A DNA stretch of 64,000 nt from Thermoguttaceae bacterium (GCA_050013075.1 JBEKFZ010000005.1:16065-80064); one strand, 5' to 3'. Shown: positions 12,046 through 55,087, numbered from the stretch's first letter. Numbers and translations: made by a program. Notes: generated from the letters alone by a model not told the origin.

Positions 12046-12089
12046 AGTCGGGGCGACTGGATTTGAACCAGCGACCTCTTGGTCCCGAA
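12046..12089. repeat. Distal att direct repeat (44 bp = 3' half of tRNA-Pro)
   Basis: AGTCGGGGCGACTGGATTTGAACCAGCGACCTCTTGGTCCCGAA is identical to 55011-55054. Confidence 0.9.
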
Positions 12090-12216
12090 TTATGTTTTTG
12101 GAACTGCCGAAAACACCCGAAAACCAAAGCACGCTATGAATTTACCATGCTTCGATAGCATTTGCAAGTAGTTGCAAATAGTATTCGTATTTTGCGGGAA
12201 ATAAGCGTATTTTTGA

Positions 12217-12324
12217 GTGTACACGTGTACGAAAAAATGTGAATGTGCGTACATTGACCGCTATCGTAATGCACCCAGAGGTCACTGGTTTTTTTACAAA
12301 GCATAAAACGTCTTGGTACACGTC
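12217..12324. promoter_or_regulatory. Cluster of GTACACGT-type motifs just inside the distal att site (candidate arm-type recombinase sites)
   Basis: GTGTACACGTGTACG (12217-12231; GTACACGT in both orientations) and GGTACACGTC (12315-12324). The same octamer occurs at 54927-54934 between int and the proximal att. Confidence 0.35.
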
Positions 12325-12514
12325 TTAGCACACACGTTAGTAAAGCGATCATCTTTTATGGAGTCGAGGGCCACGGCGTCGAGAAATCAATGTGGGGCTT
12401 GTAGGTGCCAGTGACACCTGTTTTAGACTACTGAACAGACAAGGAAAATGCCAGTCCACCCCCTCTTGTCATGCACCCGGCCTAGATTAATGCTAACATT
12501 CGATAGGCAGTAAT

Positions 12515-12599
12515 GGCCGGATATACTGCCCCCTCCGGCTATAGCCTATTAAATGTTGCCCCCATGACTATGTGTGTGTGATCATGGGGGTCTTTTATT
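12515..12599 (+). ncRNA. Candidate small RNA unit A (hairpin + linker + intrinsic terminator)
   Basis: Stem GCCGGA/TCCGGC with a loop containing CTGCCCC, linker TATAGCCTATTAAATGTT, then terminator CCCCCATGA...TCATGGGGG + TCTTTTATT. Confidence 0.3.
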
Positions 12600-12695
12600 G
12601 GTTGATCAACCCAGCCTGGGCATCGGGTTATGAACACCCGTCCATATTGCAATACTGCTGGATCAGGATAGGTTAAAAGTCGATGGGCTTCTTTA

Positions 12696-12777
12696 GGCTG
12701 GATTCCCTGCCCCATCCGGCCACGCCTATCAAATACAGCCCCCATGCCCACTAATCTGGACATGGGGGTTTTTGTTT
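12696..12777 (+). ncRNA. Candidate small RNA unit B (paralogue of unit A)
   Basis: Stem GGCTGGAT/ATCCGGCC with loop TCCCTGCCC, linker ACGCCTATCAAATACA, then terminator CCCCCATG...CATGGGGG + TTTTTGTTT. Confidence 0.3.
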
Positions 12778-13112
12778 GAAGGTTAATCTCCACGGCGTCG
12801 AGCACCCCTGCATGGGCGTCGCGACTTGGCGTTACTCAACCCCCCCGCTCTCCCTCTTTCTGGGTGATTGAACTTTAATCTTTGATATCGCAAAAGTAAG
12901 TGCGTTCGTTTTAACTTAAAGGCTTCTAGCCATGAGGCAGCGTTAGCACCCGGATATTCCGTTTCTGATCATATCAGAACCGTCCGGAGTGCGCTCTTTA
13001 ACACGGCTCGTTTGCTGCGGGCCAATCTTCAACAGTTCAACTGGCAGGGATTTCCTGCTTGTGTTTTTATTTCAGGGCGGCAAGCCGCCCGCAACGTTAA
13101 GGGAGGTGTAAG

Positions 13113-13667
13113 ATGAGAAGGTCGATTTTTTTTGTTTTGATGGTATTACTATTTTGGATGGTTAATCTTGATATGATGCTGGCGGCAGATTACCAGTTCA
13201 TCAGAAGTGTTGGCAGTTCTGGTTACGGGAATGGACAGTTTAGGAATCCTGGCAGCATAGCCGTGGACCTATCTGGGAACGTTTGGGTTGCCGATTCAAA
13301 TAACAGTCGCATTCAGGAGTTTGACAGCAGTGGAAATTTTCTAAGAACCTTTGGCAGTTATGGTACCGGGAACGAGCAATTAGAAGGTGTTCAGGGTATA
13401 GATGTAGACTTGTCAGGAAACATTTGGGTCGCCGATACAAATAACTATCGCATTCAGAAATTTGATAGTAACGGAACATATCTCACTGAGTTTGGGGACG
13501 GGCAATTCTGCGATGTGGCTGTGGATTTATCAGGGAACGTTTGGGTTTCTGATTGGGGTAACAACCGCATCCTGGAATTCAGCATGGTTCCCGAACCCTC
13601 CACCCTTGTCCTTCTCGGCATCGGTGCCATCAGCCTCCTTGTCTATGCTTGGCGACGGAGGAAGTGA
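13113..13667 (+). CDS. NHL-repeat protein with PEP-CTERM sorting signal
   Basis: Signal peptide, then repeats SGNVWVADSNNSRIQEFD / SGNIWVADTNNYRIQKFD / SGNVWVSDWGNNRILEF. C-terminal VPEPSTLVLLGIGAISLLVYAWRRRK. GGGAGG Shine-Dalgarno sequence upstream. Confidence 0.85.
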   Translation: MRRSIFFVLMVLLFWMVNLDMMLAADYQFIRSVGSSGYGNGQFRNPGSIAVDLSGNVWVADSNNSRIQEFDSSGNFLRTFGSYGTGNEQLEGVQGIDVDLSGNIWVADTNNYRIQKFDSNGTYLTEFGDGQFCDVAVDLSGNVWVSDWGNNRILEFSMVPEPSTLVLLGIGAISLLVYAWRRRK

Positions 13668-13693
13668 TACATTGTTCCCCAAGTTGCAAGACT

Positions 13694-13857
13694 CGCCACC
13701 CTGAGTGGATTTGTACTCCAAATTGATAAAGAACATAATCGTAATCACGCCGAATATTGAACGCCAAAGGTACCCTTTGTGGTACCGGTTGCAAAAATCT
13801 CCTAGACGTTTGGTAGAATCAGCGGATTGAGCATCCGCTTTAAGAATTTTTACGCTA
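13694..13857. repeat. Left copy of a ~165-bp inverted repeat
   Basis: Reverse complement of 19575-19739: the first ~85 nt differ at a single position, the middle is ~70% identical, and the terminal hairpin part is identical. Weaker homology extends into the PEP-CTERM codons (13596-13667 vs 19767-19850). Confidence 0.9.
13821..13851 (+). terminator. Intrinsic terminator of the NHL/PEP-CTERM gene (inside the inverted repeat)
   Basis: AGCGGAT-TGAGC-ATCCGCT followed by TTAAGAATTTTT. The mirrored copy at ~19581-19611 serves the minus-strand PEP-CTERM relic. Confidence 0.6.
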
Positions 13858-14484
13858 TCTTTCTTGCTTTCGGCGTGGTCAATTTCTGGGCCTTCTTCGT
13901 GGTGGTATTCTTGATAGCCATTTATCATGTCCTTTCGTATTGGGAATTCTTGTGGATTGCGACCTCCGCGACCAATCAGGACAGACAGTTACCTCGGGTC
14001 TACGAAAAGCTCAAGCTGATAGTTAAAGGAATTGCAGTGGGTTACAGCAGCGAAATGGGGCATGTCGAGAACCTCATACCGCACGAGTTTACAACATGTA
14101 GATACACGATATGGCAATTTTGGACTCCAGCCAACTAGTAATTAAGCAGAAAGCTTGGAGCCGGAGAGATCTGACGAAAAACCAAGGGTTCTTGACAGGT
14201 GGCGTCAGACAACTAAGTTGATGGAATGGCCGAATTACTGACGCCCGAGGAAGTGAAGGTTCCTGAACATGGCCATCCGCGCCAGGGTTGGCGAGCGTCT
14301 GCACCAGCTCGTCGCGGCCAGGCAGAACGGCGAACCAAATGGACTCACCAGTATCCTAGCTATAATGACACCGAAGTTATCATGTTGCGCGCCGGCTGAT
14401 AAATCTGGTTCGGGCGGTTGATCTCGATCAGCTAGCGAGCGTATGCTCGGGCAGCGGGGTGGATGGGTATGGAAAGTTGAAAGG

Positions 14485-15459
14485 ATGTTTTTTTACTTCG
14501 ACGAGTCAGGTGGGTTTGAGACGCAGCCGCAGGGTCATCGTGCTGGAATCGTCGTCGGTGTGGTTCTTCCCGAGTCAACACGCGACAACGTTTTCGGCCG
14601 GTTTCAGAAGTTTCTCGCAACCCTGAGCCCCAATGAGTACGATCGCGGCGAGCCGAAAGGTGCTCGCCTCAGTGACGACAGCAGAAGCCGATTCTCTAAG
14701 TTGTTGGCCGACTGCCAGGACTTGCTGCTGGCGGTTACGATGCTTGACCTTACGCCGCTAGCGCAGTTGGACGCTAAGACACTCTGCGAGTCCATCGTCA
14801 AGCGGCTCAACTGGTGGGCCGGACAATGCCGCTACCAGACACTGCGCGATGAGGTGACCCTGCTGGCAAAGCAAGCGGGAAACCTCAGTGTGCCGCAGAC
14901 GCTTCGCCTTGCCGCGACGGCCAGGTGCATCATGCGAGCCCTGGACCACGCAGTCATTCGCTTCGCGGGCGATTGTTACCGGCCGTGCTGGAACGCGATC
15001 AGCTTCGAGTTGGACGCGGTTCAGACGCGGCCGGGCAGCCGGGAGCAGCAGGTCTTCGAGACGCTCCTCCCGGCGTGGATTACGGCTTGGAGTATAAAGA
15101 ACCCAATCACCCTGGTCGAGGAACTGCATACGCCGGATCATCCTTTTGTGAAGCAGTACGACCGGGCCAACGGGATCGACCTGGGAGCCATACTCCGAAA
15201 TAACGTACATTGGCGGTCATCTGCGGGTAACCCAGGTATCCAAATCGCTGACATGGCGGCAACCGTTGTGTCGCGGGCCGTGCATGGTATAACAACGGGG
15301 CGCGAGTTGAAAGACTATGGCACTTTGATGAAACGGGCGTTGGTGTCCCGAGCAGACATAGGAATCTTATCTGTCACTGAAACCTCGGAAGAGGACATCG
15401 CTCGGCGTTATGCTGGCCTGCTTGGTGCGGTCCACGCTGTTCGTCGGCATGAGCGGTAG
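14485..15459 (+). CDS. DUF3800-like protein
   Basis: MFFYFDESGGF matches the DUF3800 N-terminal hYhDESG motif, as I recall it. The ORF-track start at 14443 is probably too far upstream. Confidence 0.65.
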   Translation: MFFYFDESGGFETQPQGHRAGIVVGVVLPESTRDNVFGRFQKFLATLSPNEYDRGEPKGARLSDDSRSRFSKLLADCQDLLLAVTMLDLTPLAQLDAKTLCESIVKRLNWWAGQCRYQTLRDEVTLLAKQAGNLSVPQTLRLAATARCIMRALDHAVIRFAGDCYRPCWNAISFELDAVQTRPGSREQQVFETLLPAWITAWSIKNPITLVEELHTPDHPFVKQYDRANGIDLGAILRNNVHWRSSAGNPGIQIADMAATVVSRAVHGITTGRELKDYGTLMKRALVSRADIGILSVTETSEEDIARRYAGLLGAVHAVRRHER

Positions 15460-15807
15460 CGACGATTGGTACTCATGCGGCGGCGGGATGCAAAGGGGAA
15501 CATTGGTGGCGCGTCTGGCGAACAAACCGCCAGCGGCAAAAGCGATGAAGGGCTTGACAACCTGGAGCAAGTAGCCCGTCCCACTTCCCGCCGCCGTACT
15601 TAAACGATACCCGCCCGACAAGCAAGAGAAGGCCACGCTCCTGGTTCTGGAGCAGGCCGAGATGCACTCTCGATGAGATTTCGGCTTCTGTTGGGGCTCC
15701 GATGCAATCCGTGTCGGCTCACCTTCGGGATCTCCGAAAGCCAAAACATGGAGGGCACACGGTCGAGAGAAAATCGCTTGGGAAAGGACTATTTAGCTAT
15801 CGGCTTT

Positions 15808-16560
15808 TCATTCCTCCTCCGGCCTTTCAAGCGTAATCTTTTGGCCTTCAAGACAGGGCAAATGATCAAGTAGCGATTGAAACTTCGTGCAACCCGTCAT
15901 TAGAAGCTGCGCATATTTAAGACCGACGCGCCGAATCATCTTCGTACTCTCAGCACTATTGCTTCGTCCACATTTTCCCGAGATACAACGCGGATGATCA
16001 ACTCCCGTTACCATGTAGTCCGCCAACGGAACAGGGGCAGTAAGCACAATGTCGTAAATTGCTTTATTTTTTCGGTAAAGTTTCTTCTTGAGACTGCTGA
16101 AGTAGGACTCTGGATTTACTACTCGCCATGATTTATTCTCGAAACTGTAGATCGGAATACCCGACTCATACTGCACAAAGAAATATCGGTTGCGGTCCTC
16201 ATCTTCACGCCGGAATACCATGAAGTGTCGGCCTACTAGGACAGAAATCGGGAACCTCATCAAGCAGGGACCATAGTAATTTCCATTTACGTTGAAATTG
16301 TTTAAACCGCACCAGACTCCTGGAACTGTCCACATTCCATGTTCCGGAAGACGCAATTGCCATTTGCTTCGAAGCAGCAACTCTCCCACGTTCAAGATCT
16401 CGTCCAATTCTTCCTCATGACATGCGTGGTATAGGAATCCTCCTAGACGATCCGATAACGAACCTGTCCACCGGAAATAGCCACGGAAATCCTCTTGATC
16501 GAATGGTTCTTGGTATGACGGCAACTTTGCCGCACTCTTTTTTGTTGCTACTTTTGGCAT
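15808..16560 (-). CDS. Hypothetical protein (250 aa), no confident domain
   Basis: Long ORF convergent with the DUF3800 gene. The segments FLYHACHEEELDEILNVG ... YDIVLTAPVPL only vaguely recall ADP-ribosyltransferase-fold families and are not assignable by eye. Confidence 0.6.
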   Translation of the reverse strand: MPKVATKKSAAKLPSYQEPFDQEDFRGYFRWTGSLSDRLGGFLYHACHEEELDEILNVGELLLRSKWQLRLPEHGMWTVPGVWCGLNNFNVNGNYYGPCLMRFPISVLVGRHFMVFRREDEDRNRYFFVQYESGIPIYSFENKSWRVVNPESYFSSLKKKLYRKNKAIYDIVLTAPVPLADYMVTGVDHPRCISGKCGRSNSAESTKMIRRVGLKYAQLLMTGCTKFQSLLDHLPCLEGQKITLERPEEE

Positions 16561-16627
16561 TCTTCACCTCAAGTTTCATTACGGTGGTGATTGTTAACAT
16601 GCAACAGTTGGCCTGATCGTCATGCGG

Positions 16628-16910
16628 CTACCCGACACGTAATCGTCCGAAGGAACGCGAGCCGAATCCGTAGGGCACACCGTTGCCCATGTTGGTAATT
16701 TTATACCATGCACTACCTGATCGACAGTAGCCAACCCCATCCCCAGGGGGCAGTGACTGACGACGAAATAGCGTGTGCCGCGCCATTAACGGCCACCCCC
16801 GCCCATAGAATAGCGCACGTCGGTGCGACACACCGATGCGTGTTAGGAAACGCGATGCCGTTGAGCAATGATCGCCCGACCGTCCCAACTACCCGATGCG
16901 CGTGAGACAA
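16628..16910 (-). pseudogene. Decayed fragment of a DUF1559-type gene (frameshifted)
   Basis: Two minus-strand frames joined near 16720 read ...SLLNGIAFPNTH...APWGWGWLLS / GSAWYKITNM... Compare the intact gene: [14 protein letters not shown] ... [15 protein letters not shown]. The patch is GC-rich inside an AT-rich cassette. Confidence 0.45.
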
Positions 16911-17329
16911 GCCATCAAACGACCCATTGCAGGAGTGGAGTGTCTATTTCGTTAGACTTTTAGATTTCAACTATGCAATTTAAAAAGTTGTGAGAAAGTC
17001 GGAAAACTCGATTATTCATTCCTATTCGCCCTCGCCTAGCAACCACTCCCGTGCTCGTTCGACCAGCAATAGTTCGGCGGCTGGCCGCCGCCCTGGTTAA
17101 CCTCAAGGGAACATTCCATGAGTATTTTGATTGAGAAGTGGGGGCAAAAACCGCCCGGAGCGGATTCGTGTTCCGCTGGTCTAGCGAACAGGTCTAGCGA
17201 GTTTTGAATAGATGGTACGCGGAAGGGTACTATTCCGCCCCAATTTTCGGAGATAAACATTGCGGGATTATATACTTGATGCAAGGTAGTGCATAAAGAC
17301 TGTTCTAATGTTTAGTAAATACAGGGTGA

Positions 17330-18352
17330 ATGGGAACCGCTAAAATAGCGGTTATGAAAAACTATAGACGTGCAATCTGGGAAAAAACGAAATGCAATGT
17401 CCGGGCCTGTATTGACCTCAGGAAGATATTATCCGTAATTATTTTATCATTAGTCATCGTTTATTGGTACGGAAATAATTCTACTAAAATGTCGGATATG
17501 TTAATAGATACCATTGCCGTTCCGAGCTTGGGTGTAATTCTATGGTTCATTATTTATGGATTATGGAGTTGGGCAACCGCCCCACGGCAAATCTATTATG
17601 AACAAAGTGAAAAGATTGATGAATATACAAAAGCCAATCAGCGGCAAGTGATTGAAATCAAAACAATTGATGATTTCAATTTTGCACAAGGTCTTTATTG
17701 TACGATGCCTCTAGGTGAGATGCATCATCCATCTCATATTAAACGCTGGTGGAAAGAAGAACAAGCAGCATCCGTAAATGATCGTGAATCACGCGAAATA
17801 TTTCTTATTGCAAAGCAAAAGCAAGAAGCTTGGTCAATACTTTATGCAACTTGTCCATTCGACAATTATATCCTTAATATCTACGGATTTGCTAAAAGGG
17901 ATCTTCAAAAGTCCGATATTGATGAATGGGACTCATCACAAGATATAGTCAAAGCATTATTAGAAATTGTAAAAAGGGATTTGCCGAAATGCCGTGGCGT
18001 ACTAATTGAAGTTGATTCAAAAAAAATTAAAGAGCTATCACCCAAAAAAATTCTATTTGATCGGCTTGCCGCAGTTTGTGACATTGAATTTCAGGAAATT
18101 TGCAAAATATCTTATAAGATTCCAGAAATATATTATTGTTCTCGCAATAAAAACGAAGAGAAATCAATGACATTATTATATGCGCGGGCACCTTGGGGGC
18201 AGGATAATCTGGACGTTAATAATAAGTCACATATTGGGTTCTTGGTTCATTCTATGTATTCCATTTATACTGATTGTCTTCCTGGTGATACTGAGTGGCG
18301 AATATACCTCGAAGATCTCGAAAAACGCATTATGGATACTTATTTACCATAG
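17330..18352 (+). CDS. Hypothetical membrane-anchored protein (2 predicted TM helices, ~240-aa soluble C-terminal domain), low GC
   Basis: 340-aa ORF with hydrophobic segments ILSVIILSLVIVYWY and LGVILWFIIYGLWSW. No motif recognised. Confidence 0.65.
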   Translation: MGTAKIAVMKNYRRAIWEKTKCNVRACIDLRKILSVIILSLVIVYWYGNNSTKMSDMLIDTIAVPSLGVILWFIIYGLWSWATAPRQIYYEQSEKIDEYTKANQRQVIEIKTIDDFNFAQGLYCTMPLGEMHHPSHIKRWWKEEQAASVNDRESREIFLIAKQKQEAWSILYATCPFDNYILNIYGFAKRDLQKSDIDEWDSSQDIVKALLEIVKRDLPKCRGVLIEVDSKKIKELSPKKILFDRLAAVCDIEFQEICKISYKIPEIYYCSRNKNEEKSMTLLYARAPWGQDNLDVNNKSHIGFLVHSMYSIYTDCLPGDTEWRIYLEDLEKRIMDTYLP

Positions 18353-18395
18353 GATAATTATTCGGAATTATCCGGTTGACAAAGCAAATTGCCTA

Positions 18396-18542
18396 TTATA
18401 CCTTATGGTTAATGCGTTTTAGTTTGCCCTCCATCTTTTTAGCGTCAACCTTAATGAAGGCTTCTAATGCCTCTTCGGGTTTCAGGGGGTAGAGGGAGAG
18501 ACGTTTAAGGCGGTTTTTGGGATGTTTAGGCTTTTTAGACAT
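18396..18542 (-). CDS. Possible small basic protein (48 aa)
   Basis: Manual translation gives MSKKPKHPKNRLKRLSLYPLKPEEALEAFIKVDAKKMEGKLKRINHKV. It is below the ORF-track length cut-off, has no clear Shine-Dalgarno sequence, and is co-directional with the upstream membrane protein gene. Confidence 0.25.
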   Translation of the reverse strand: MSKKPKHPKNRLKRLSLYPLKPEEALEAFIKVDAKKMEGKLKRINHKV

Positions 18543-18654
18543 ATATTGACTTTCGGAATTAGAAAATATCTAATGTAATCTCTGTGAGTTTATCCACCGC
18601 AAAGTAACATTTCCGTGGAGTCTCCAATGGCAACGAATAATGATTCCCAGACAC

Positions 18655-19392
18655 CTAGTGAACCGTCCCGTACTCCCGAACCACCCGCCCCCTCAACTCC
18701 ACCGACGCCTGCTGTAATTCCAGCGGTTGAACCATCGGTTCGACCCCAAACGGAGCGGTGGCAGGAGGGATATCAGCCACCCCAAAGAAAGTAAACTTCT
18801 CCGGAGACGGAGCAAAAAGAACAAGAGGGGCCAAAAAAAATGCGAATATCAGTGCGCGCGACGCATTAGCAATTTGATTAGCTTTCCAAGCGTTTACCTT
18901 AAGTATTTCTTTTGTGGCGCAATGTAAATTGGCACTGATAATTGCACTCGGGTCTTCTGATGATTCGGCACATTGAATTGCCCCGCGAATAGACATACTA
19001 GCCGGTCGTTCGCCGGGGCTTTTTGTGCGAATTATGCTAATAAATGCCAATCCAGAAAAAACTAGTGACGGAAGTCCCCACGAAATCAAAGTTGAAATCT
19101 TCTTTTCTGGGGACAATAAATAGACTGATGCAATGGCCGCTATTGTCAAACCATAAAGCCATTCTGCCTTTTTATCCAAGGATGCAAATGTGACCAAAGC
19201 TTCTCTATAGAGATTCTCTGCATATTTTAACACAATACCATAATCAACATCTGCTTTGGCCTTAAATTCCTTTGAATACCAATCGTGCTCTTGTTGAATA
19301 TCGGGTTCGTCTTGCATGCTGTTACGACGAGAAAATGGAATCGACAACAAATCCCAAAACAAATCCCAAATCATTAGTAAGTATTTCATCAA
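18655..19392 (-). CDS. Hypothetical multi-pass membrane protein (effector-like)
   Basis: N-terminal helical region, SLDKKAEWLYGLTIAAIASVYLL, then two more hydrophobic helices. The true start may be the internal MQDEPD. Any resemblance to 2TM/3TM abortive-infection effectors is impressionistic only. Confidence 0.6.
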   Translation of the reverse strand: MMKYLLMIWDLFWDLLSIPFSRRNSMQDEPDIQQEHDWYSKEFKAKADVDYGIVLKYAENLYREALVTFASLDKKAEWLYGLTIAAIASVYLLSPEKKISTLISWGLPSLVFSGLAFISIIRTKSPGERPASMSIRGAIQCAESSEDPSAIISANLHCATKEILKVNAWKANQIANASRALIFAFFLAPLVLFAPSPEKFTFFGVADIPPATAPFGVEPMVQPLELQQASVELRGRVVREYGTVH

Positions 19393-19574
19393 TTATTCTC
19401 CTTATTAAGCACTCTCTTTTGCAATTGCTAATTTATAAACTAATCTTTTAACTTACCCTGTAATATGATTTCCACTTCTGTCAGCATAGGCGGGAGCGCA
19501 GCGGTGCACAAGCGGGGGTTGAATGTCCTGCTCTACATTGCAGAATGTCGGCGCTGATCCAACGGCACCTTGAA

Positions 19575-19739
19575 TAGTGTAAAACTTCTTAAAGCGGATG
19601 CTCAATCCGCTGGTTTTGCTAAATGTGTTGGGGATTTTTTACAAGCGGTACCATAAAGGGTACCTTTGGCGTTCAATATTCGGCGTGATTACGATTATGT
19701 TCTTTATCAATTTGGAGTACAAATCCACTCAGGGTGGCG
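19575..19739. repeat. Right copy of the ~165-bp inverted repeat
   Basis: Reverse complement of 13694-13857. The ORF track shows the shared peptide YHKGYLWRSIFGVITIMFFINLEYKSTQGG in ORFs 13530..13928(-) and 19598..19804(+). Confidence 0.9.
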
Positions 19740-19766
19740 GGCCGGACGGCTATGGAAATTCTCTTC

Positions 19767-19913
19767 TTACTTCCACCGTTGCCAAGCGTAGTCGAGTAGG
19801 CTGATGGCACCGACACCGAAGAGTGCGATGGCGGAGGGTTCGGGGATGGGTGTGAGAAGGAACGCTTCACTCTGCCTGCTAGGGTTCATACCAACACCAA
19901 CAATCCACCCCAT
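19767..19913 (-). pseudogene. PEP-CTERM tail relic (48 codons)
   Basis: Manual translation gives MGWIVGVGMNPSRQSEAFLLTPIPEPSAIALFGVGAISLLDYAWQRWK*. A TGA lies 8 codons upstream of the ATG. It is homologous to the C-terminus of the NHL protein. Confidence 0.6.
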
Positions 19914-21665: not shown

Positions 21666-21669
21666 CACA

Positions 21670-38682: not shown

Positions 38683-38689
38683 TCCTTCG

Positions 38690-43304: not shown

Positions 43305-43317
43305 GGCTTTGCTCCTT

Positions 43318-43632: not shown

Positions 43633-43661
43633 GGGATTGCTCCTTGTTTTGCCCGCTTGGT

Positions 43662-44294: not shown

Positions 44295-44300
44295 TGAACA

Positions 44301-45167: not shown

Positions 45168-45169
45168 GA

Positions 45170-46165: not shown

Positions 46166-46825
46166 TGAGAAGGGTCCTTTCATTAAGGATCTGGCCGGCC
46201 TGCGGGTGCAACCGTGTGCCGGCCGTTTTTGTTTCAGGGGTTGTGTTTGTTTCGTTCCATACCAGTATTCTAGTAGGGTATCGGCCCCTGTAAAGAGTGG
46301 CATGGACAATAAGCCACTATTTTTTACAAATAGTTGTAAGTTATTGGCGGATATTCTTTTAGAAACAGGGAAAAAACGAAAAAAAACGAAAATAATTTGC
46401 CAAAATTTTACCCCCTCGACTTGGACGGTTGGTATTTCGGGAATCGACTCCACGCAAGAGGGGGTGATCAAATCGTAAGCCCGTGATAAGTAAGCAGTTA
46501 AGTTCTATTTGACTCTATACGACATCTATAATTGGTATGGGGGGCGGTCCATGCCGTTCAAAACCGGCCCATGACGGCCCGGGGAGATCCCGGGGAAATC
46601 CGGAGAACGTTCTTTGGTGCCAGAAATCGCTGGCCGGGGAGATCCGGAGGCGGCCGGCGCGCGGCCCGGAGGCCCGGGGAAGGCCCGAAGCCGGCAAAGG
46701 ATGTCCTGGGTGGCCGAAATGGCTTCCAGGGCTAACCCGGGGACCAGGCCGGCCGGTGAGGCTTTGGCGGCATGGGACTAGAGACACTAGAGGGACTATT
46801 TAGGCTTGCTGGCGGCCGGCGGCGC

Positions 46826-46874: not shown

Positions 46875-47531
46875 CTAAATGTAGTCGAACTCGTCGCACA
46901 GTTCGCGTTCTGCTTCCAGTATTCGGTGCCGTAGGCCGTTTGGGATCTGCGCGTTATCTTTCAACGGCCCACTAGCACCGACTCTTTGCGGGGAGACAGC
47001 TTTTATTTTGGCTTCATCAATTTCCAGCCGTGCTAATTCCTTGAGAAATTTTATAAAGTCCGCTTCTAATGTCTCGAACTTGCCGATGAAGTCAACCTTG
47101 AATTTGGAAGGTCTCCATAGCCCGGGGGCCTTTTGATAGTAGCCCAACATCGACAATGTAATTTGCGTGATTAAGCCCGGGTGAATGAGCAGATACTTGA
47201 CGACAAATTCCTCGTAATCTTTGCTCCAACACTCCGCAAACCAATGTCCTGCTGCGGCCGGTTCAGAATCGATCTTGTCATTAAAATTGGTGAGCATTGC
47301 CCATGACCACAAGCTCGCCAACCGTGTTACTGGATGACGCACTATTGCAAATGCCGGCCGGCTGTAGCGGAGTTCATAGGGCACGCGGAAGATACCATCA
47401 TGCTCGTGAAATGAGTATGGTTCGGCATTCTCCTTGCCGGCGATTCCCAACGCTTCCAGCGATCGGCGAATCCATGTGCCGCCGGTCTTGGGAATATGCA
47501 CGAAAATAAATTTGTCAGTAATCAAGGCCAT
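46875..47531 (-). CDS. Sulfotransferase family protein
   Basis: From the internal M: FIFVHIPKTGGTWIRRSL (5'-PSB loop PKTGGT) and AFAIVRHPVTRLASLWSW (3'-PB-like RxPxxRxxS). Confidence 0.75.
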   Translation of the reverse strand: MALITDKFIFVHIPKTGGTWIRRSLEALGIAGKENAEPYSFHEHDGIFRVPYELRYSRPAFAIVRHPVTRLASLWSWAMLTNFNDKIDSEPAAAGHWFAECWSKDYEEFVVKYLLIHPGLITQITLSMLGYYQKAPGLWRPSKFKVDFIGKFETLEADFIKFLKELARLEIDEAKIKAVSPQRVGASGPLKDNAQIPNGLRHRILEAERELCDEFDYI

Positions 47532-47533
47532 TA

Positions 47534-48304
47534 CTAAACTCCCTTTCCGATGATACTTCCTCGTTTTACCCTGATCGACATTACGCTTGTCTGCCCCTTT
47601 GTTTTTACCCATCCCGGTTTGCTGGTTCCAATGTACTTGCCCCATTTCTTATAGAGCAATTTTGTGGTAGCCTCCCAACTTTCATGCGACAGTATTCCTA
47701 CGTTGCCGCCACGTCCGGTAAAGCTCCGCCCGTGATCGAAATAAAACCGCATGTCGGCATAAAGAATCCGGTCCTTCAACAAAGTCTCCATTGTGAAGTC
47801 CAGGTCTGGTCTCGCTGGTAAAGTCGTGTCGAACTTTCTCTCTCGCGCCGCTCCGCGTAATCCCCAGGTGGCGGCCATTGGTTGTACCAGTCGAATTGGG
47901 TTTCCATCCGGTCCGGCTAGAAAACTATTCCGCGTCCGGCTCCAACAGAACACGTTGATTCCCAAGTCCTGACAGACCACATGAGAATTGTTGATGATTT
48001 GCAAGATCACCGCCGGATCGGTAATCGGCCGCTGCTTTCCTATCAGTGGCCGAACACATAACAGGTCATCGTCGGACATTACCACGCAATCTTCCTGTAT
48101 TTTGGCGTTGATCCAATTCCTGATGTTGACCAATCCCTTGATTTCATCGTGAAACAATAACTGATTTGCCGGCACAACCTTGGAATAATCTTCTTTCTCC
48201 GAACGCGCCACGCAGACTAAAGCCGTGGGGAGCAACTTGAGTAGACGTTTCATGTTTTGGGATCGGGCTCGACTCGGAACCACAATCCTAAGACTTTCTG
48301 GCAT
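47534..48304 (-). CDS. GT-A-like glycosyltransferase-fold protein (putative)
   Basis: LRIVVPSRARSQ...LLKLLPTALVCV...GLVNIRNWI...CVVMSDDDLLCV shows the beta-alpha-beta start plus an acidic DDD motif typical of GT-A enzymes. The family is not identifiable by eye. Confidence 0.5.
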   Translation of the reverse strand: MPESLRIVVPSRARSQNMKRLLKLLPTALVCVARSEKEDYSKVVPANQLLFHDEIKGLVNIRNWINAKIQEDCVVMSDDDLLCVRPLIGKQRPITDPAVILQIINNSHVVCQDLGINVFCWSRTRNSFLAGPDGNPIRLVQPMAATWGLRGAARERKFDTTLPARPDLDFTMETLLKDRILYADMRFYFDHGRSFTGRGGNVGILSHESWEATTKLLYKKWGKYIGTSKPGWVKTKGQTSVMSIRVKRGSIIGKGV

Positions 48305-48980
48305 CTTCGCCCTCTAACTTTTTGATTAACTTGTCGGCCGAGTAGCCCCTTGCCACTCCGACCCGATTTAAAGTCCTTTTGATTTGCGGCAATTCCAGTA
48401 ACTCCACCAGTCGATTCCATTCATGCGTGTTGCGTGCCAGCACGATCACATAGTCGTAGTGCTCGTGCGGCATCAACTCCATCTCGGGCGGCCCGTCGCT
48501 TGCCGGCGCCCGCCCAAACTCTCCTTCTTCGAGGGCTTGCAGTTCGAGGTCCCCTCGGATCTCATCGAGCATCCTCCGCATGTCCGCGTCTTCGGCCTCC
48601 AACTCCGATAGAAGATCGCCCAAGACATCATCTTTTGTTTTGGCCTTCCTGCCGATCATGTCGTGGACGGCTATAAGTTGCTTCGCTTCCTGCTCGGTTA
48701 GATCCAAGATCAAGACCGGAACAATGTCATCCTCCGCTATGTCGGTTCGCATGTGGCCGTCAAGAATCATGAGCCGGCCGTCGGGCAGTTCGCGGGCAAG
48801 CATTGCGTCCGCATATCCAATCTCATGGAGCACGCCAATCATGTCCTGCCGCTCCTCGATCGGGTGCTCGTGCCAGTTATGCGGATTGGGGATCAACTCG
48901 GAAGCCTTCACACGCCTCAATTCCTTGATGCGGTCGCGGAAAGACTGGCTCGATTGGGCGACTTGTTTTTTACGTACCAT
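48288..48980 (-). CDS. ParB-like N-terminal (ParB/Srx fold) domain protein
   Basis: RVKASELIPNPHNWHEHPIEERQDMIGVLHEIGYADAMLARELPDGRLMILDGHMRTDIA. Overlaps the downstream gene by 17 nt. Confidence 0.75.
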   Translation of the reverse strand: MVRKKQVAQSSQSFRDRIKELRRVKASELIPNPHNWHEHPIEERQDMIGVLHEIGYADAMLARELPDGRLMILDGHMRTDIAEDDIVPVLILDLTEQEAKQLIAVHDMIGRKAKTKDDVLGDLLSELEAEDADMRRMLDEIRGDLELQALEEGEFGRAPASDGPPEMELMPHEHYDYVIVLARNTHEWNRLVELLELPQIKRTLNRVGVARGYSADKLIKKLEGEDARKS

Positions 48981-49143: not shown

Positions 49144-49386
49144 TTACCCGGAGAAATAATTTAGTACGCGTAAAAGGTCCCCGCCCGAGGTCTGGGAAAC
49201 CCGGACCCGGCCCGGCCGGGAAGGACCCATTGCTTTTGCATTTTCATTTGATATGACGTTGGTTGTCATGCTCCACGGCTCGGCCTGCCGTATCTCGTTG
49301 GCGTGCTGCTGCCAATACTCATTCCAGCCGATGCCGTTGCGGAAGGCGTCCAGGGCGGCGCGCTCGAAGGCTTTAATTCCGTTCAT
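49144..49386 (-). CDS. Small hypothetical protein translationally coupled to the primase
   Basis: MNGIKAFERAALDAFRNGIGWNEYWQQHANEIRQAEP... The ATG overlaps the primase TGA (ATGA). Confidence 0.5.
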   Translation of the reverse strand: MNGIKAFERAALDAFRNGIGWNEYWQQHANEIRQAEPWSMTTNVISNENAKAMGPSRPGRVRVSQTSGGDLLRVLNYFSG

Positions 49387-52235
49387 TCCGTTGGTTCCTT
49401 TCGGCACGGCAACCATGCGCGACAATCGCGGCATTGCTGGTTGATGTAGCCGTCGGCTGTTCGGGTTTCCTCCACTTCATTGTGAGGGTAGGAAGTCACA
49501 GGGTTCACAGGGTTCACAGGGTTTTCCCTATTGGGATACTTACTACTACATATATCCTTATCTATTTCCTCTCTTGCGCGCGTGCGTTGATAACAAGTGT
49601 GTGAACCTTGTGAACCTTGTGAAGTCTGTGAATTATCAGTTGGGTTTGGGGGGAATAGTGAATTCTGTAAAGCATTGTCCGGGTGAAGCATCCCGATTCC
49701 GGTAAAACACCATTGCAATTTTCCCGCGACGGTCCGTTGCTTCTTTTCGATGTTCGGTCTTAACTTTTGTATCGCAAGGCTAAACGCGGTATCGGTCATT
49801 GTCGGTCGGCCTTCGCGCTCCACGGCCGCGTTGTAGGTCACTCTGAGGGCTTGCTTGGTAACAAATGAATCGGGATCGTCAATCGTGTAACGGTCCAGCC
49901 AAACGGATAAAGGATCGGTTGTAGCGTGAAAATCCCGCCACGCCTCTTGAACGGACGGCGAATCGGAAAATCGCCGCTGCTTTTCGACGCGACGTAATCC
50001 TTCGATCGCTCTATTGAACATCCCCGATAGTTCTTCTGGCGATTGCAACCGGGCGTCGAGCACGTCACGCGGTATCTGTTCATCGGGGCCGAAAGTATGG
50101 TCAAAGGGAATAACAATCCATCGACGAAAAAACGCCGCTGAACTATCGGCACTTCGCGGTGGATAATTCGCAGAGAATACCAGCCGGGCAAACGGCTCAA
50201 GGTCGAATGAATCCTTAAACTTGTACTCTGCGTTCAATGTATCGCCGCCGGTCAGCGCCTTAAATGTCGATGTTCCGGCAAGATGTTCGCTGGGCAGGTC
50301 CGCACAGATATTTGCCAGCTTGCCGACTAATCGAGAAACGGAAAATTTATCCGCCTCCAATTTGTGAAGTGGAATAGCGGCGATATTATGACGGCCGAGA
50401 AAACGAGTAAGCAGAGATAACCAAACCGACTTGCCGTTGCAACCTTCCCCCAGTAGTAAGATTGCCTTTTGTAACCACGTTGCGGGCACCATCAAAACGC
50501 CGGGGATCTCCCACGCCAAGTCATGGGCATCGGTCGGGAATGTACTTTTCACAAAGGCTTCGATGTTCGGACACGTTGCCGCCGGATCGTACTTGACTGG
50601 CAATTGCACCACTGATAGATATTTCGGATCGTGTGGAAGCAACACGCCATCGGCTCTAACCATGCCGTTTAGCACGTTTACTAAATCCATGCGCGGCCGG
50701 TCCGGCAGTTCAGGTGCATCGACCCGGACAAATTCGACCACTTCCGAAGCAAGGCGAGTGCTCCACGCCTTTGTGTCACCCCACGCGGTCATACTTGCCT
50801 TGACTATTGCCTTAACATATTTTTCCGCGCCCGGTCGATAGGCTCCGCCGTCATATCTGTAGAGCTTTCCGCCGCCGTCTTGAGCAAAGTATTCTTTCAA
50901 GCAGATTGCATCGGCAAGAGTTTTGACAAGGCCGGGATCATTGTCTGTTTCCTTATCGCCTTTTTTTTTATTGGCCCGAGTTACGGCCTTGGTATAGATT
51001 TTGTCTCTTGTGTGGTTCGCGGCCTTGTCCCATGTTCTTAAAAAATACTTTTCATTCCCGGCGAATTTTCCGACATTTTGCACGGCGTCCCAAACGTTAG
51101 CTTGCGGAATGCCATGCTCGATAGCCCAACAGCAAAGAGCATAATCAGTTTCCGATCGTGTACCAACCGGCGCTACTTCGCATTGCATGATAAGATCGTT
51201 AAATTGATCGTGCCGTTTTGGTGTTATCTTCTTTGAAGTCGGCAATTTCACTTTGGAAATCTGTTCCCGCTGCCGGTGTGATGGTGATTCATCAGCAAGC
51301 TTTTCAAAGTCCGAGAAAGGATAACGGGCGTCGGGGTTCAAGTGGACCAGTTCGCATGGTCGCGGCTCGCGGCCGTTACGCTGATCTTTACGATTAAGGG
51401 TTCCTGGTACGCGAAGCAATCGGGACAAGTCTTGGGTGTGGTCGCCCCCGATCTTTGCGGCCATCCCGCTTAGAACGTCTTGGAAGTGTAGCGCTTTGGA
51501 TGATAGCGGCGGGACGTTTTGCAACTTATCGAGATAAACTTTTTCTTTCGATTCATCGAGGATATATGACCGGTGTTTTTTATTTCCGGTTTTCTGATCG
51601 TCGATGAATTCTACATGAACCGCCGGCGGAGTTCCAGCATCGTCGATCAAAAACGGCTCGGCGAGCAAAAAGTATAAATGACACCCATTGCCAGAGTTGA
51701 CCACAATAGACGGCCGGGGAATTCCGGCATCTTTGCATCGCTGGATCGCCTCTTCGTATTGGCAGTCGTCGATGTCACTCCATAGCGTCCGCACCACGCG
51801 AATCTGCCAGGCTTGATCATACTGACCACCTGTGCCGAATCGAGGGCATGCGCCGAAAAAAATATTTGCATGGGTCTGTTCTGCACATTTGATCTGGCGA
51901 TTGATGGCAGATGCCAATTTCTGCGGGAACGACTGCCATTGTCCATTTTGGTCTTTTAGGCCCACCAGTGTGTATTGAATACCCTTGTAATCGACTTTGC
52001 TCTTTTTGTGGTTCGCTTCGGTCCACGTTTCAATGGGCCGGAAGAGAATCATATCGCCCGGCGAGAAAAGGCTCTGGAAAAACTCAACTGTGTCACTTAC
52101 ACTGCTGGCTGTTCCGTTACTATCTTTTCGAGCATGAGGTAATGTAGATGAGATACGTTCAATAACATCACTGTCTTTCATTTTCGATTTTAATCCCGTA
52201 TCATCCATATTGATAGATTTTTTATACCCTGGCAC
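49383..52235 (-). CDS. Bifunctional AEP-type primase-polymerase / SF3 helicase (P4 alpha / D5-like)
   Basis: LWSDIDDC and VVNSGNGCHLYFLL are AEP motifs. LLLGEGCNGKSVWLSLL (Walker A) ...FSANYPPRSADSSAAFFRRWIVIPFDHTF matches the P4-family primase C-terminal domain. Confidence 0.85.
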   Translation of the reverse strand: MPGYKKSINMDDTGLKSKMKDSDVIERISSTLPHARKDSNGTASSVSDTVEFFQSLFSPGDMILFRPIETWTEANHKKSKVDYKGIQYTLVGLKDQNGQWQSFPQKLASAINRQIKCAEQTHANIFFGACPRFGTGGQYDQAWQIRVVRTLWSDIDDCQYEEAIQRCKDAGIPRPSIVVNSGNGCHLYFLLAEPFLIDDAGTPPAVHVEFIDDQKTGNKKHRSYILDESKEKVYLDKLQNVPPLSSKALHFQDVLSGMAAKIGGDHTQDLSRLLRVPGTLNRKDQRNGREPRPCELVHLNPDARYPFSDFEKLADESPSHRQREQISKVKLPTSKKITPKRHDQFNDLIMQCEVAPVGTRSETDYALCCWAIEHGIPQANVWDAVQNVGKFAGNEKYFLRTWDKAANHTRDKIYTKAVTRANKKKGDKETDNDPGLVKTLADAICLKEYFAQDGGGKLYRYDGGAYRPGAEKYVKAIVKASMTAWGDTKAWSTRLASEVVEFVRVDAPELPDRPRMDLVNVLNGMVRADGVLLPHDPKYLSVVQLPVKYDPAATCPNIEAFVKSTFPTDAHDLAWEIPGVLMVPATWLQKAILLLGEGCNGKSVWLSLLTRFLGRHNIAAIPLHKLEADKFSVSRLVGKLANICADLPSEHLAGTSTFKALTGGDTLNAEYKFKDSFDLEPFARLVFSANYPPRSADSSAAFFRRWIVIPFDHTFGPDEQIPRDVLDARLQSPEELSGMFNRAIEGLRRVEKQRRFSDSPSVQEAWRDFHATTDPLSVWLDRYTIDDPDSFVTKQALRVTYNAAVEREGRPTMTDTAFSLAIQKLRPNIEKKQRTVAGKLQWCFTGIGMLHPDNALQNSLFPPNPTDNSQTSQGSQGSHTCYQRTRAREEIDKDICSSKYPNRENPVNPVNPVTSYPHNEVEETRTADGYINQQCRDCRAWLPCRKEPTE
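49496..49522. repeat. Iteron cluster 1 (3 x 9-mer TCACAGGGT)
   Basis: Perfect tandem 9-mers, equal to GTGAACCCT x3 on the minus strand, inside the primase 3' codons (NPVNPVNPV). Confidence 0.85.
49601..49636. repeat. Iteron cluster 2 (GTGAACCTT x2 + GTGAAGTCT + GTGAATTAT), inverted relative to cluster 1
   Basis: Tandem 9-mers, with a further GTGAATTCT at 49658-49666. Confidence 0.8.
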
Positions 52236-52265: not shown

Positions 52266-52589
52266 TTAGATTCCTGCTGCCTGAAGATGTTTTTCCGCCG
52301 CTTCAATCTGCTTACGCCGCTGGGCGGACATTTTCGTCGGCTGCGGAACTGGCACGCGACCGGATTCCGCCTGCTCGGTGAGTGCATCGAAAAAACGCTG
52401 CAATGCTTCACGCGACGTGCACTTAGTCCCGGCAATTTGCGAGTATTCGAGACGAATACCGCGTACTCCGATTTGACACCATCGGTAAAGAGTCGCAACA
52501 TTCGGCCGTTTGCCAGCTCGCCGCTTAGGTAGAATGTTAGTGGCGTCGGTGAGAGAAATTAGCTGTTCAGAGTTCGTGTCGATTGCCAT
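52266..52589 (-). CDS. Small HTH DNA-binding protein (DUF1580-like; excisionase/AlpA-like position)
   Basis: LISLTDATNILPKRRAGKRPNVATLYRWCQIGVRGIRLEYSQIAGTKCTSREALQRFF. Sits between the integrase-side genes and the primase. Confidence 0.55.
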   Translation of the reverse strand: MAIDTNSEQLISLTDATNILPKRRAGKRPNVATLYRWCQIGVRGIRLEYSQIAGTKCTSREALQRFFDALTEQAESGRVPVPQPTKMSAQRRKQIEAAEKHLQAAGI

Positions 52590-52631: not shown

Positions 52632-52726
52632 AAGGTATCAAATGACATTGCCAATTAAAATTGAAGACAATTCAGCACTTATCAGCATGATATTATTTAT
52701 TCGAGAAATACCGTGCTTTTATACCT

Positions 52727-53554
52727 TTAATTATTCGCTTGATTAGTTTTTCGACCCAATTGCCGAGGTGGTGGTAAAGGTAAATTGTGTCGATTCGCAT
52801 ATCTCCGGGCAGCGTTAATAATCCCCTGAGGACTTTCGATTCGCTCCCATGGTTTATGTTTCTCTAATAAATTCCGCTTGATACTATCCCACGTCGTTCC
52901 TTTAATCGCCTCTTGATAAATCCACTTGTCGCGCTTTTCATTTTGTCCTACCACAAGAACAGGAACTTTATTTACATTGTCTGCTTTGCCGTCCACCTTG
53001 GCGATAGTTGATTGTTGTTTGAGGAGATTCACCGCTCGCTCATATTCTTGTCTTAATATAGCATTGAGACGGGGAATCTCAGTTTGCCAGAGAATAGGGG
53101 TGCATCCGGGATATTCTATGCGTGCTGCGTTACTGATAGGCCACCATACTTCGTTGGTTAGCTCGTCAATGCACTCTGGAATCTCCGGTCTGATATCCCC
53201 ATATTTTGCACAGCCCGGCTGGATAGCCTCACAGAGACGCATATACACTTCATGGGCCAGATTGTATGTAAGAACATGGGCGTTTGCTTCAATCATTCCG
53301 CAACACTCGATTGGCGTTGTTTGGACCGCATCGAATGCCTGGGGAAAAGTGCTAATAGCAAAACCTTCCTGGCATGTATGCAGAAAAAAAGATAAAGTTT
53401 TCCAAGATTGTTCTGTAATATTGTCCCTAGGAAAAATTGGTTGGTGTTGTGGATCGAATTGAGCAAATACTTTATCAAGCCAAAAAAGAAAATCACTAGC
53501 CCATGAATGGATTCTTCTCAGACGGCGTAGTCTTATTTTAATAGACAAAACCAT
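52727..53554 (-). CDS. Hypothetical protein (275 aa)
   Basis: Long ORF between int and the HTH gene. No motif recognised. Confidence 0.55.
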   Translation of the reverse strand: MVLSIKIRLRRLRRIHSWASDFLFWLDKVFAQFDPQHQPIFPRDNITEQSWKTLSFFLHTCQEGFAISTFPQAFDAVQTTPIECCGMIEANAHVLTYNLAHEVYMRLCEAIQPGCAKYGDIRPEIPECIDELTNEVWWPISNAARIEYPGCTPILWQTEIPRLNAILRQEYERAVNLLKQQSTIAKVDGKADNVNKVPVLVVGQNEKRDKWIYQEAIKGTTWDSIKRNLLEKHKPWERIESPQGIINAARRYANRHNLPLPPPRQLGRKTNQANN

Positions 53555-53670
53555 GATTCATCTTTCCTTTTCTCCGGGCGGTCAACCGGCTGCTGTGGCG
53601 AAAGATGATTTCCACAACAACCGGCCGACCATGCGGTTTATAATTCCGCGGACCCGGCAATGTTAAAATT

Positions 53671-54894
53671 CTAACCTATTTTCCTCACAACTTCGATAGC
53701 TCGGGCGCTGTCACGCTCGGCGTAGACTTGCGTAACGTCGGCTCTGGAATGTCCTAAAATAACCTGTGCGGCCTCTAGTCCGAACTGCTTGCGGATCGCC
53801 GTAGCGGCGGAGTGGCGTAACTGGTTAGGATGCCAGTGCGGAACTAGGACGGGGTTGTCGAGGCCCATGTGCACGGCATCCTCTACAATGGCTTTATTTG
53901 CCTTCACCACGGCTCGGCGGATAGCACGGCCATAACTATCCTTAGAGTAGGCTTTGAGCGGTGGACATTGGTGTCGGGCCTTACGGCGGTGTTGCTGGGA
54001 GGGCTGAACCTTTGACCGGCGCTTAGACCGTTGCTCAGCATGGCGTTTATCTTCACTCTCGACAGGCTGGAAGCAGAAGGCATCGGCGGGGCGGAGCAAA
54101 TACGGCCGCAAAATATCCTGGGCCTTGGGACCTATGTAGATCACACGGTCCTTACCATGATGCTCGGTCTTATGACTTGACGGTCGATATTCCCAAACCT
54201 CCCCGGATCGGTCCACGTCCATCGGCCGCATCATGCACACTTCACCTGGACGGCAACCTGTTAGCCGCTGTAAACGCACCATATCCGCAACCACGGCGGG
54301 GAGGTGGTACAAAGTGGTTTCGACCACTTCCACGGCCACGGGCTTAATAGGTGCCGTTTCCCGGGCCATGCCACGGCCTTGGGGAATACCGCGAACTGTC
54401 AACAAGGCTTGATATACAGCAACCGGAATTAGCTGCTTAGAAACACCCCACTTGATAACCCTTTTAATTTCCTCACAAAAGTGATTGATTGTTTTTCGGG
54501 AAAGATCACGTTCAACCATCTTTAATTGAACTGCTTGCATGGCCAGGGGGCCAAATTCACTTGCGGGCGTACGTGCGTACAACTCGTTTAACTCATGTAT
54601 GGCCTGCCGGATTATGTGTACTTGGCTGGTTACTTTACCACCTTTGCGATAATAGCCCTTTGCATAATCCAGATAGCTGGCACATAGTTCGACAATGGTT
54701 AAACCTATATCGGCTTGAGGAACAGGAACCTTGGCGGGATTCGCCGCCATCTCGGCGATAATGCGGCCATACTCCTGCTTGCTCTCAGGCGAATCGTATT
54801 CGCCAAGATAGATAAACTTGCCTTGGACCCGCATGTAAGCGAGTCCGCGGGCCTTGTGGAAACAATACTTAGGCAGAGAAACGGTTTTCGGCAT
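53671..54894 (-). CDS. int: Tyrosine-type site-specific integrase
   Basis: LTGCRPGEVCMMR (Arg I), HPNQLRHSAAT (H-x-x-R), LGHSRADVTQVYAERD (His/Tyr). Lies 118 bp from tRNA-Pro. Confidence 0.9.
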   Translation of the reverse strand: MPKTVSLPKYCFHKARGLAYMRVQGKFIYLGEYDSPESKQEYGRIIAEMAANPAKVPVPQADIGLTIVELCASYLDYAKGYYRKGGKVTSQVHIIRQAIHELNELYARTPASEFGPLAMQAVQLKMVERDLSRKTINHFCEEIKRVIKWGVSKQLIPVAVYQALLTVRGIPQGRGMARETAPIKPVAVEVVETTLYHLPAVVADMVRLQRLTGCRPGEVCMMRPMDVDRSGEVWEYRPSSHKTEHHGKDRVIYIGPKAQDILRPYLLRPADAFCFQPVESEDKRHAEQRSKRRSKVQPSQQHRRKARHQCPPLKAYSKDSYGRAIRRAVVKANKAIVEDAVHMGLDNPVLVPHWHPNQLRHSAATAIRKQFGLEAAQVILGHSRADVTQVYAERDSARAIEVVRKIG

Positions 54895-54916
54895 AGTGCA
54901 ACCCTTTCAAAACAAG

Positions 54917-54934
54917 GTGTGTACAAGTACACGT
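54917..54934. promoter_or_regulatory. GTGTGTACAAGTACACGT motif between int and attachment site
   Basis: Contains GTACACGT (54927-54934), also present at 12219-12226 and 12316-12323 at the other island end. Confidence 0.3.
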
Positions 54935-55012
54935 TTTTGCTTTGTTTTCGGGCCGCACTTCCGACCGTCGGAAGGTATCGTAAGTTACGATTCGGCAAGT
55001 CTTTATGTCAAG

Positions 55013-55087
55013 TCGGGGCGACTGGATTTGAACCAGCGACCTCTTGGTCCCGAACCAAGCGCTCTAGCCAGGCTGAGCTACGCCCCG
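55013..55087 (-). tRNA. tRNA-Pro(CGG); CCA not encoded; integration target
   Basis: Reverse complement folds as CGGGGCG-TA-GCTC-AGCCTGGCTA-GAGC-G-CTTGG-TTCGGGA-CCAAG-AGGTC-GCTGG-TTCAAAT-CCAGT-CGCCCCG-A, 75 nt. Confidence 0.9.

Follow-up and report, generated by a model that had tools for sequence, protein, structure and literature searches.

A probable prophage-derived island with defence cargo at a tRNA-Pro(CGG) gene in a Thermoguttaceae population from peat

Results

Boundaries of the element

We analyzed a stretch of 64,000 nucleotides from a Thermoguttaceae bacterium (GCA_050013075.1 JBEKFZ010000005.1:16065-80064), hereafter the window, in which an element of about 43 kb adjoins a tRNA-Pro(CGG) gene. 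The original prediction, made from the sequence alone, had placed the ends of this element at perfect 44-bp repeats, and these ends held. Positions 12046-12089 and 55011-55054 are direct repeats identical at 44 of 44 positions, with 42,965 bp between them. With up to three mismatches permitted, the inner 30-mer of the repeat has only two copies in the window and none in 100 shuffles, and no internal att copy, even a degenerate one, was found inside the island.

The right-hand repeat is the 3' part of an intact tRNA-Pro(CGG) gene on the minus strand (55012/13-55087; ARAGORN and Rfam RF00005, 65.7 bits), the target of integration. In the tRNA sense, the repeat and the anticodon loop (TTCGGGA) start at the same base, and the repeat ends with CT after the discriminator base; this is the span that had been described. 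We refer to the integrase-proximal copy (55011-55054) as attL and to the other copy, a displaced tRNA-Pro 3' half (12046-12089), as attR. The latter is present in the same form in three contigs from other samples (L009-L011).

Inside the repeats lies a tyrosine integrase gene (53671-54894, minus strand; PF00589, Phage_integrase, 45.7 bits against a cut-off of 27.1), whose start codon is 117 nt from the 3' end of tRNA-Pro. Alignment to the XerC-like structure 4a8e located its motifs R (TGCRPGE), HxxR (HQLRHS), His (LGHS) and Tyr (TQVY). The arrangement of tRNA, integrase and distal direct repeat that had been proposed is therefore present, with the catalytic motifs in place. No second recombinase was found between 12.1 and 53.6 kb, and an Rfam search detected no RNA families inside the island. 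Of the features of an Islander-type island, the locus has an intact tRNA at one end, a displaced tRNA fragment at the other, and an integrase beside the intact tRNA.

A core of phage genes

The integrase-proximal 16.3 kb (38.7-55.0 kb) is a core of integration, replication and packaging genes, and all core genes described here are on the minus strand. Next to the integrase region is a P4-family primase-helicase with D5_N and DUF5906 domains (49383-52235; Pfam; TIGR01613, 176 bits against a cut-off of 108.7). It is followed by a trio encoding ParB-like, TAGT-like glycosyltransferase and sulfotransferase-like proteins (46875-48980; Pfam/PHROG), by a block encoding an AAA_5 (CobS-like) ATPase, a DUF7192 protein, an MgsA_C-like protein and a conserved 104-aa protein (43321-46471; Pfam), and by a clamp-loader-like AAA+ ATPase (41545-42597; PF13177 and PF00004). 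The core ends with two packaging genes. The large terminase TerL (38790-40820) is of the GpA type, with GpA_ATPase and GpA_nuclease domains (PF05876 and PF20454), and its 539 homologues are mostly planctomycete. The small terminase-like TerS (40792-41466) matches phrog_57 weakly when taken alone; six of eight orthologues match this family (best E-value 1.7e-14), and the gene is always directly upstream of TerL. A search of the TerS profile against PDB returned nothing meaningful.

A complete phage contig of 42,051 bp (L109) carries ParB-like, TAGT-like, AAA_5, DUF7192, MgsA_C-like, AAA+, TerS and TerL genes in the same order as the window, and the core proteins of the two are 35-61% identical. 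Past TerL, this phage has two small genes followed by genes for Phage_portal_2, a 790-aa head protein and a cement protein. Core genes also occur together with portal or capsid genes in two other loci (L103 and L107) and in several IMG/VR contigs, and one gene pair of the block at 43321-46471, itself colinear with L109, recurs in portal-carrying phage contigs. Scans of viral contigs with the primase or DUF7192 alone gave no matches, whereas an alignment-based scan succeeded. The colinearity with L109 and the contigs bearing portal and capsid genes indicate that the core comes from a real, uncultured phage lineage, of which it is the half with the early and packaging genes. Among deposited phage genomes, the nearest TerL is only 23% identical.

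A second relative, on a 1.5-Mb contig (L098/L108; hereafter L108), has nine colinear core genes that are 56-89% identical to those of the window. The same range applies to the block at 43321-46471, and the clamp-loader-like ATPase is 78% identical; the ParB-like/TAGT-like/sulfotransferase-like trio is kept in both L108 and L109. L108 adjoins tRNA-Ser(TGA) and lacks the P4 primase. Past its TerL lies a remnant of an L109-type 142-aa gene and then a different cargo, including SIR2_2 and an SMC-like ATPase. This different neighbour of TerL and different cargo suggest that the virion module was lost more than once.

The breakpoint and the absent virion genes

Homology to phage stops about 100 bp past the TerL stop codon, near 38683. 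At this point lies the 5' end of a truncated ParB_N-N6/N4 methyltransferase gene (38683-38785, minus strand; about 35 codons), which marks the breakpoint between core and cargo. It is 60% identical to the N-terminus of a ParB_N-methyltransferase in another locus (L100, 11956-13371), where that gene follows TerL.

Of the genes expected in a complete tailed prophage, the element has TerL; Pfam and PHROG searches found in it no portal, major capsid, tail or lysis genes. The only structural PHROG matches were TerS and TerL, and the portal and head proteins of the relatives had no match in the window. All open reading frames (ORFs) of the element that are at least 350 aa long have an assigned non-structural family, and the longest unassigned one is 340 aa. 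The phage part is half a phage only, and the element is unable to form virions by itself.

Cargo

The remaining 26.6 kb of the element (12.1-38.7 kb) differ in composition from the core. The content of guanine plus cytosine (GC) is 0.41-0.49 over 12-38 kb, compared with 0.52-0.59 in the flanks, in agreement with the lower GC anticipated for the left part. The cargo as a whole has a GC of 0.475 and a tetranucleotide distance of 0.26-0.29 to the flanks; the corresponding values for the core are 0.524 and 0.14. The three-part mosaic that had been outlined, with phage replication and packaging genes, stress and surface genes, and a defence block, was confirmed for each class of genes.

Defence genes are concentrated within 21-33 kb, all on the minus strand. 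They include a gene for Abi-alpha (32408-33046), a complete type I restriction-modification (R-M) system (HsdM, 30800-32353; HsdS, 29526-30803; HsdR, 26304-29510), a SIR2-domain defence protein that is the PADLOC candidate PDC-S65 (23944-25692; PF13289; PDLC05061, E = 9e-204), and a DrmC-like nuclease of the PLD family (21090-21737; Pfam/PADLOC). These four make up a defence island, and a protein with a weak profile match to Mrr_cat is encoded in the same stretch (21670-22539).

The stress and surface genes were assigned by family matches. They code for DinB_2 (37330-37977, minus strand), VanZ (35956-36387, plus strand), a cold-shock protein (35726-35923, plus strand) and a PATR/PEP-CTERM protein (33544-35265, plus strand). 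A cold-shock-domain gene is also found in the cargo of L108 (17716-17913), although the cargoes are otherwise unrelated.

Close to attR is a gene for an NHL-repeat PEP-CTERM protein (13113-13667, plus strand; family match), at a position where strains differ. A contig from another sample (L010, 2766-3111) departs from the window at 13122, at the start of this gene, and codes for another secreted protein instead, so that the cargo next to attR is polymorphic in this population. Next to it, a low-GC block of 5.7 kb with a DUF3800-like gene and ORFs without assignment is enclosed by inverted repeats of about 270 bp (13590-13858 and 19574-19844; whole feature 13590-19844), which are 97% complementary over their central 104 nt. 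The enclosed GC of 0.41 is the minimum of the window. The repeats could be the scar of an inversion or insertion. Their left arm takes in the PEP-CTERM tail of the NHL gene.

In or beside the island, three PEP-CTERM proteins are encoded (10989-11531, 13113-13667 and 33544-35265), two of them with PATR repeats. Surface proteins that are borne by the island and depend on the exosortase of the host may be part of the accessory load.

A hotspot with a remnant of a second element

In a sister species (L015), whose flank proteins are 93-97% identical to those of the window, the same tRNA-Pro is occupied by another element, with 37% identity to the window in the integrase and 41% in the DUF1580 protein. 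A remnant of an element of this type is present in the window (7331-7586, minus strand), where a stretch of about 190 bp aligns closely to L015. In it, 16 nt (7571-7586) come from the 3' end of tRNA-Pro, about 130 bp are similar to the attP arm of L015, and the integrase gene is represented by its first 40 codons, with 65% amino-acid identity. The remnant ends exactly at the 3' end of a tRNA-Leu(CAG) gene (7246-7331, plus strand), which is convergent with tRNA-Pro on the minus strand. Fragments of tRNA-Leu were searched for and none were found. Given the L015-type element at the same tRNA and its remnant in the window, the site is a hotspot at which elements accrete in tandem.

Between the remnant and attR lies a segment (7587-12045) with a tetranucleotide distance of 0.25 from the flanks, similar to that of the cargo; it is probably older island DNA. 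As the remnant shows, the variable region continues to the left of 12046, and the hotspot probably fills the whole space between tRNA-Leu and tRNA-Pro (7332-55011). From left to right, the order would be the remnant, the 4.4-kb segment with transposase and PEP-CTERM genes, and the 43-kb element. The genes of the segment, assigned by family matches, are those for an IS66-like transposase (7866-10661, minus strand) and a PATR/PEP-CTERM protein (10989-11531, plus strand). The transposase is unusually long (931 aa), with RNase_H_2 fused to DDE_Tnp_IS66, and no terminal inverted repeats were found around it. A terminator-like hairpin followed by a T-run (12004-12033, minus strand) lies 13 nt downstream of the displaced tRNA half. 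It was considered as proof that the DNA from 12045 leftward is the original host flank, and this was dropped, since the remnant at 7331-7586 shows more island DNA further leftward.

Other genes of the core and related loci

Four further observations concern the core and its relatives. First, beside the integrase is a gene for a 275-aa protein (52727-53554) with no Pfam, PHROG or NCBIfam match and no assigned function. Its C-terminal part of about 65 aa is a widespread domain: 557 representative proteins match, mostly over residues 205-270, and their N-termini differ. Second, the adjacent DUF1580 protein (52266-52589; PF07618) is a candidate excisionase or regulator, and in another locus (L106) an HTH_17 gene takes its place. 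The structure model was poor (predicted local distance difference test, pLDDT, 59) and a fold search gave no significant match (best, a MarR-type winged helix, E = 0.23), so the excisionase role is proposed from gene position only. Third, a DUF3560 protein (42402-43442; Pfam) is absent from L108. Fourth, the ParB-like, TAGT (TET-associated-type) and sulfotransferase-like trio may be a DNA-modification module. Its counterpart in L109 (4287-8049) has a formyltransferase nearby, and no TET/JBP or hydroxymethylase gene was seen.

Two more planctomycete loci, in Aureliella helgolandensis (L102, CP036298) and Thalassoglobus sp. (L105), have an order running from ECF sigma to ParB-methyltransferase, TerS-like and GpA TerL genes. 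After TerL, both continue with host-type or insertion sequence genes, with no capsid or portal gene within 10 kb. Capsid-less blocks that end in terminase may be common in Planctomycetota.

Host and search for an empty site

The window comes from a host population of Thermoguttaceae (Planctomycetota) in SPRUCE peat. The nearest genome is a Thermoguttaceae metagenome-assembled genome, also from SPRUCE peat, and the names that NCBI gives to identical proteins are in agreement with this. The right flank has C_GCAxxG and GNAT genes, a signal recognition particle (SRP) RNA, dnaX, ybaB, recR and rpoN. The bacterial small SRP RNA (56521-56619, plus strand; Rfam) is just upstream of dnaX, the usual core-genome order, which confirms that this flank is host chromosome. 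In the left flank are genes for an AddB-like nuclease and a DUF1559 pilin-like protein, together with tRNA-Leu.

The original prediction had looked to an empty site, or to attB and attP junctions, for support; this support was not obtained. The junctions of the window recur at 98.8-100% identity in contigs from at least ten metagenome samples (at least 13 contigs), and every one of them is occupied. A degenerate 68-mer able to match attL, attR, attB and attP retrieved one attL contig only from the metagenome contigs. For the flanking C_GCAxxG gene, 80 genomes with an orthologue were found; by synteny, the closest species holds another element at the site, and synteny is lost in more distant relatives, the next two having neither the tRNA nor the left-flank genes.

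Discussion

Origin of the element

The element is best explained, with a probability of roughly 0.7, as a prophage-derived genomic island that lost its virion half and was inserted in the 3' half of tRNA-Pro(CGG) by a tyrosine integrase. Recombination between an attP site with the 44-bp identity block and attB in the tRNA gene would have rebuilt the tRNA beside the integrase gene and displaced the original tRNA 3' half by 43 kb, where it would survive as the second repeat. From what is established for tRNA-targeting integrases, the crossover most likely took place in the anticodon loop. The core comes from an uncultured phage lineage with a lambda-like head and is the half that serves integration, replication and packaging. 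Its virion and lysis half would have been lost at the breakpoint in the ParB-methyltransferase gene, with 26.6 kb of compositionally different cargo taking its place. Fusion with a neighbouring island in the tandem array at the hotspot, followed by internal deletion, appears the most likely route. We take the element to be, at present, chiefly a defence and accessory island. With an intact integrase gene and perfect repeats, it may still be capable of excision.

Several observations weigh against this explanation. Neither an empty site nor an attB or attP junction was met in metagenome contigs or related genomes, so mobility in this lineage is judged by anatomy alone. For the proposed fusion and deletion there is no direct sign of the kind that a degenerate att site within the island would give. 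Several ORFs of the cargo, 230-340 aa long, are unannotated, and ORFs of unknown function lie at 14443-15459, 15808-16560, 17330-18352, 18655-19392 and 23076-23777; PHROG and PADLOC searches of the unannotated cargo ORFs gave no matches, and the structure model of the 340-aa ORF (17330-18352) had a pLDDT of 39 and was unusable. In addition, all nine core genes in common with L108 are intact, TerS and TerL included, and the ratio of nonsynonymous to synonymous substitution rates (dN/dS) between the two is 0.08-0.18 for the eight genes that could be valued, dS being saturated for the TAGT-like gene. L108 is moreover a second relative without capsid genes, at another site and with an unrelated integrase. 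An intact core under selection fits a functional, helper-dependent element better than plain decay.

Such an element would be a working satellite that, upon infection or induction, excises, replicates with its own primase-helicase, and uses its own TerS and TerL to fill the capsids of a related helper phage with its phage-genome-sized DNA, defence cargo included. The intact integrase, P4-family primase, TerS and TerL and the absence of structural genes agree with this, as do the purifying selection on the core relative to capsid-less L108 and the other planctomycete loci that stop at TerL and are free of capsid genes within 10 kb. The repeat-to-repeat distance of 42,965 bp is close to the 42,051 bp of the complete relative; if the total length had stayed close to that of the parent phage, packaging by a cos-type GpA terminase could still fill the normal capsid of the helper. 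Known satellites and P4-like elements carry defence hotspots (PMC9122126). However, the truncated ParB-methyltransferase gene at the junction resembles an accidental deletion, and the gene after TerL is different in L108, so that the losses appear independent rather than a single inherited design. The low dN/dS may mostly reflect time spent as complete phages. Known satellites measure about 7-20 kb, around one third of their helper (PMC13376191, PMC9618062), far from the 42,965 bp seen here, and no helper phage, capsid-redirection gene or packaged reads were found. We consider a working satellite a rival of low probability. The broader idea of a planctomycete lineage of capsid-less satellites of full phage size, in which integrase, replication genes, TerS and TerL were kept and the whole virion module was swapped for some 26 kb of defence and accessory cargo, is speculative and, if anything, slightly less probable.

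The prophage-derived island could also be taken apart into two or more unrelated neighbours, a 16-kb phage remnant and an independent defence island, with the distal repeat left by an older insertion that used another integrase. Core and cargo do differ in composition, the site accumulates elements in tandem, and the cargo varies between strains. What is missing between 12.1 and 53.6 kb is any internal att copy or second recombinase, and we hold this arrangement to be improbable; in practice it merges with the fusion history proposed above.

Still less probable, and close to refuted, is a complete, working temperate phage with structural genes that have diverged beyond recognition. Planctomycete phages are barely sampled, as the 23% identity of the nearest deposited TerL illustrates, and six ORFs of 230-340 aa are unannotated. 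Yet the longest unassigned ORF, at 340 aa, is too short for a portal, tape-measure or tail-fibre gene. The relatives have recognizable Phage_portal_2 and capsid genes right after TerL, none of which matches the window, and here a truncated gene directly follows TerL and the space is taken by R-M, SIR2, Abi and PEP-CTERM genes on mixed strands. Finally, an explanation of the repeat by chance, or by a duplicated tRNA pseudogene that has nothing to do with recombination, is refuted by a 44/44 identity for which 0 occurrences are expected, by repeat ends that coincide with the anticodon loop on one side and lie exactly 2 nt beyond the tRNA 3' end on the other, by the adjoining integrase, and by the other integrase-bearing element at the same tRNA in the sister species.

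Significance

The prophage-derived island frames nearly everything unusual at 7-55 kb of the window as island DNA rather than host core. To our knowledge, almost no phages or mobile elements have been described in Planctomycetota. The element provides a well-delimited example of how defence genes travel in this phylum, and it connects a host family, Thermoguttaceae, with a phage lineage that is uncultured. Were it a satellite, satellites would be extended to phage-genome size and to a new phylum, and a full-phage-sized satellite would offer a route by which whole defence islands move between cells by transduction. The interest of the element lies mainly in its under-studied host and in this satellite question.

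Comparison with known systems

In Islander-type islands (PMC4383910), a tRNA gene split by a tyrosine integrase is made whole again by the island, whose two ends are marked by this rebuilt gene and the displaced fragment. The layout described here, with the integrase beside the intact tRNA, is the same as in these islands and in prophages, and nothing differs in principle; what sets our example apart is a poorly sampled host phylum and family. The element also resembles cryptic or defective prophages with defence cargo, in which early genes are kept, morphogenesis genes are lost, a truncated gene marks the edge and the added DNA is rich in defence genes. Unlike in cryptic prophages, all retained phage genes are intact and under purifying selection, and the total length is near that of a complete relative.

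P4-like satellites (PMC9122126, PMC8628076) share with the element an integrase, a P4-family primase-helicase, the lack of virion genes, a variable defence load and a tRNA target. They are about 11 kb long, compared with 43 kb here, and the element lacks homologues of psu, delta and sid, has its own TerS and TerL, and has a core that is colinear with a full phage and not with P4. Phage-inducible chromosomal islands (PICIs) likewise have an integrase, a primase and TerS, and capsid-forming PICIs also have TerL. The capsid, portal and connector genes of the latter are absent from the element, which is approximately three times larger. With regard to satellites in general, the element combines an integrase and its own replication gene with an incomplete virion set. 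Of the hallmarks of hijacking (psu, delta and sid, capsid-morphogenesis genes, or the capsid set of capsid-forming PICIs), none was found, TerS and TerL being the only packaging functions.

A parallel to the hotspot is provided by the tycheposons of Prochlorococcus (bioRxiv 10.1101/2020.12.28.424599). There, elements that insert one after another at the same tRNA displace the older ones outward, and broken integrase genes and partial tRNAs stay behind. The remnant at 7331-7586 matches this array debris, and the element, like tycheposons, combines a tRNA-targeting tyrosine recombinase with a replication module and cargo. This likeness, drawn from a comparison of architecture only, concerns how the element works and not its descent. 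PICI-like tycheposons never carried extra cargo (bioRxiv 10.1101/2020.12.28.424599), whereas the element has both packaging genes and cargo. Overall, it is an element of an ordinary kind, with a textbook integration layout, in a little-studied host.

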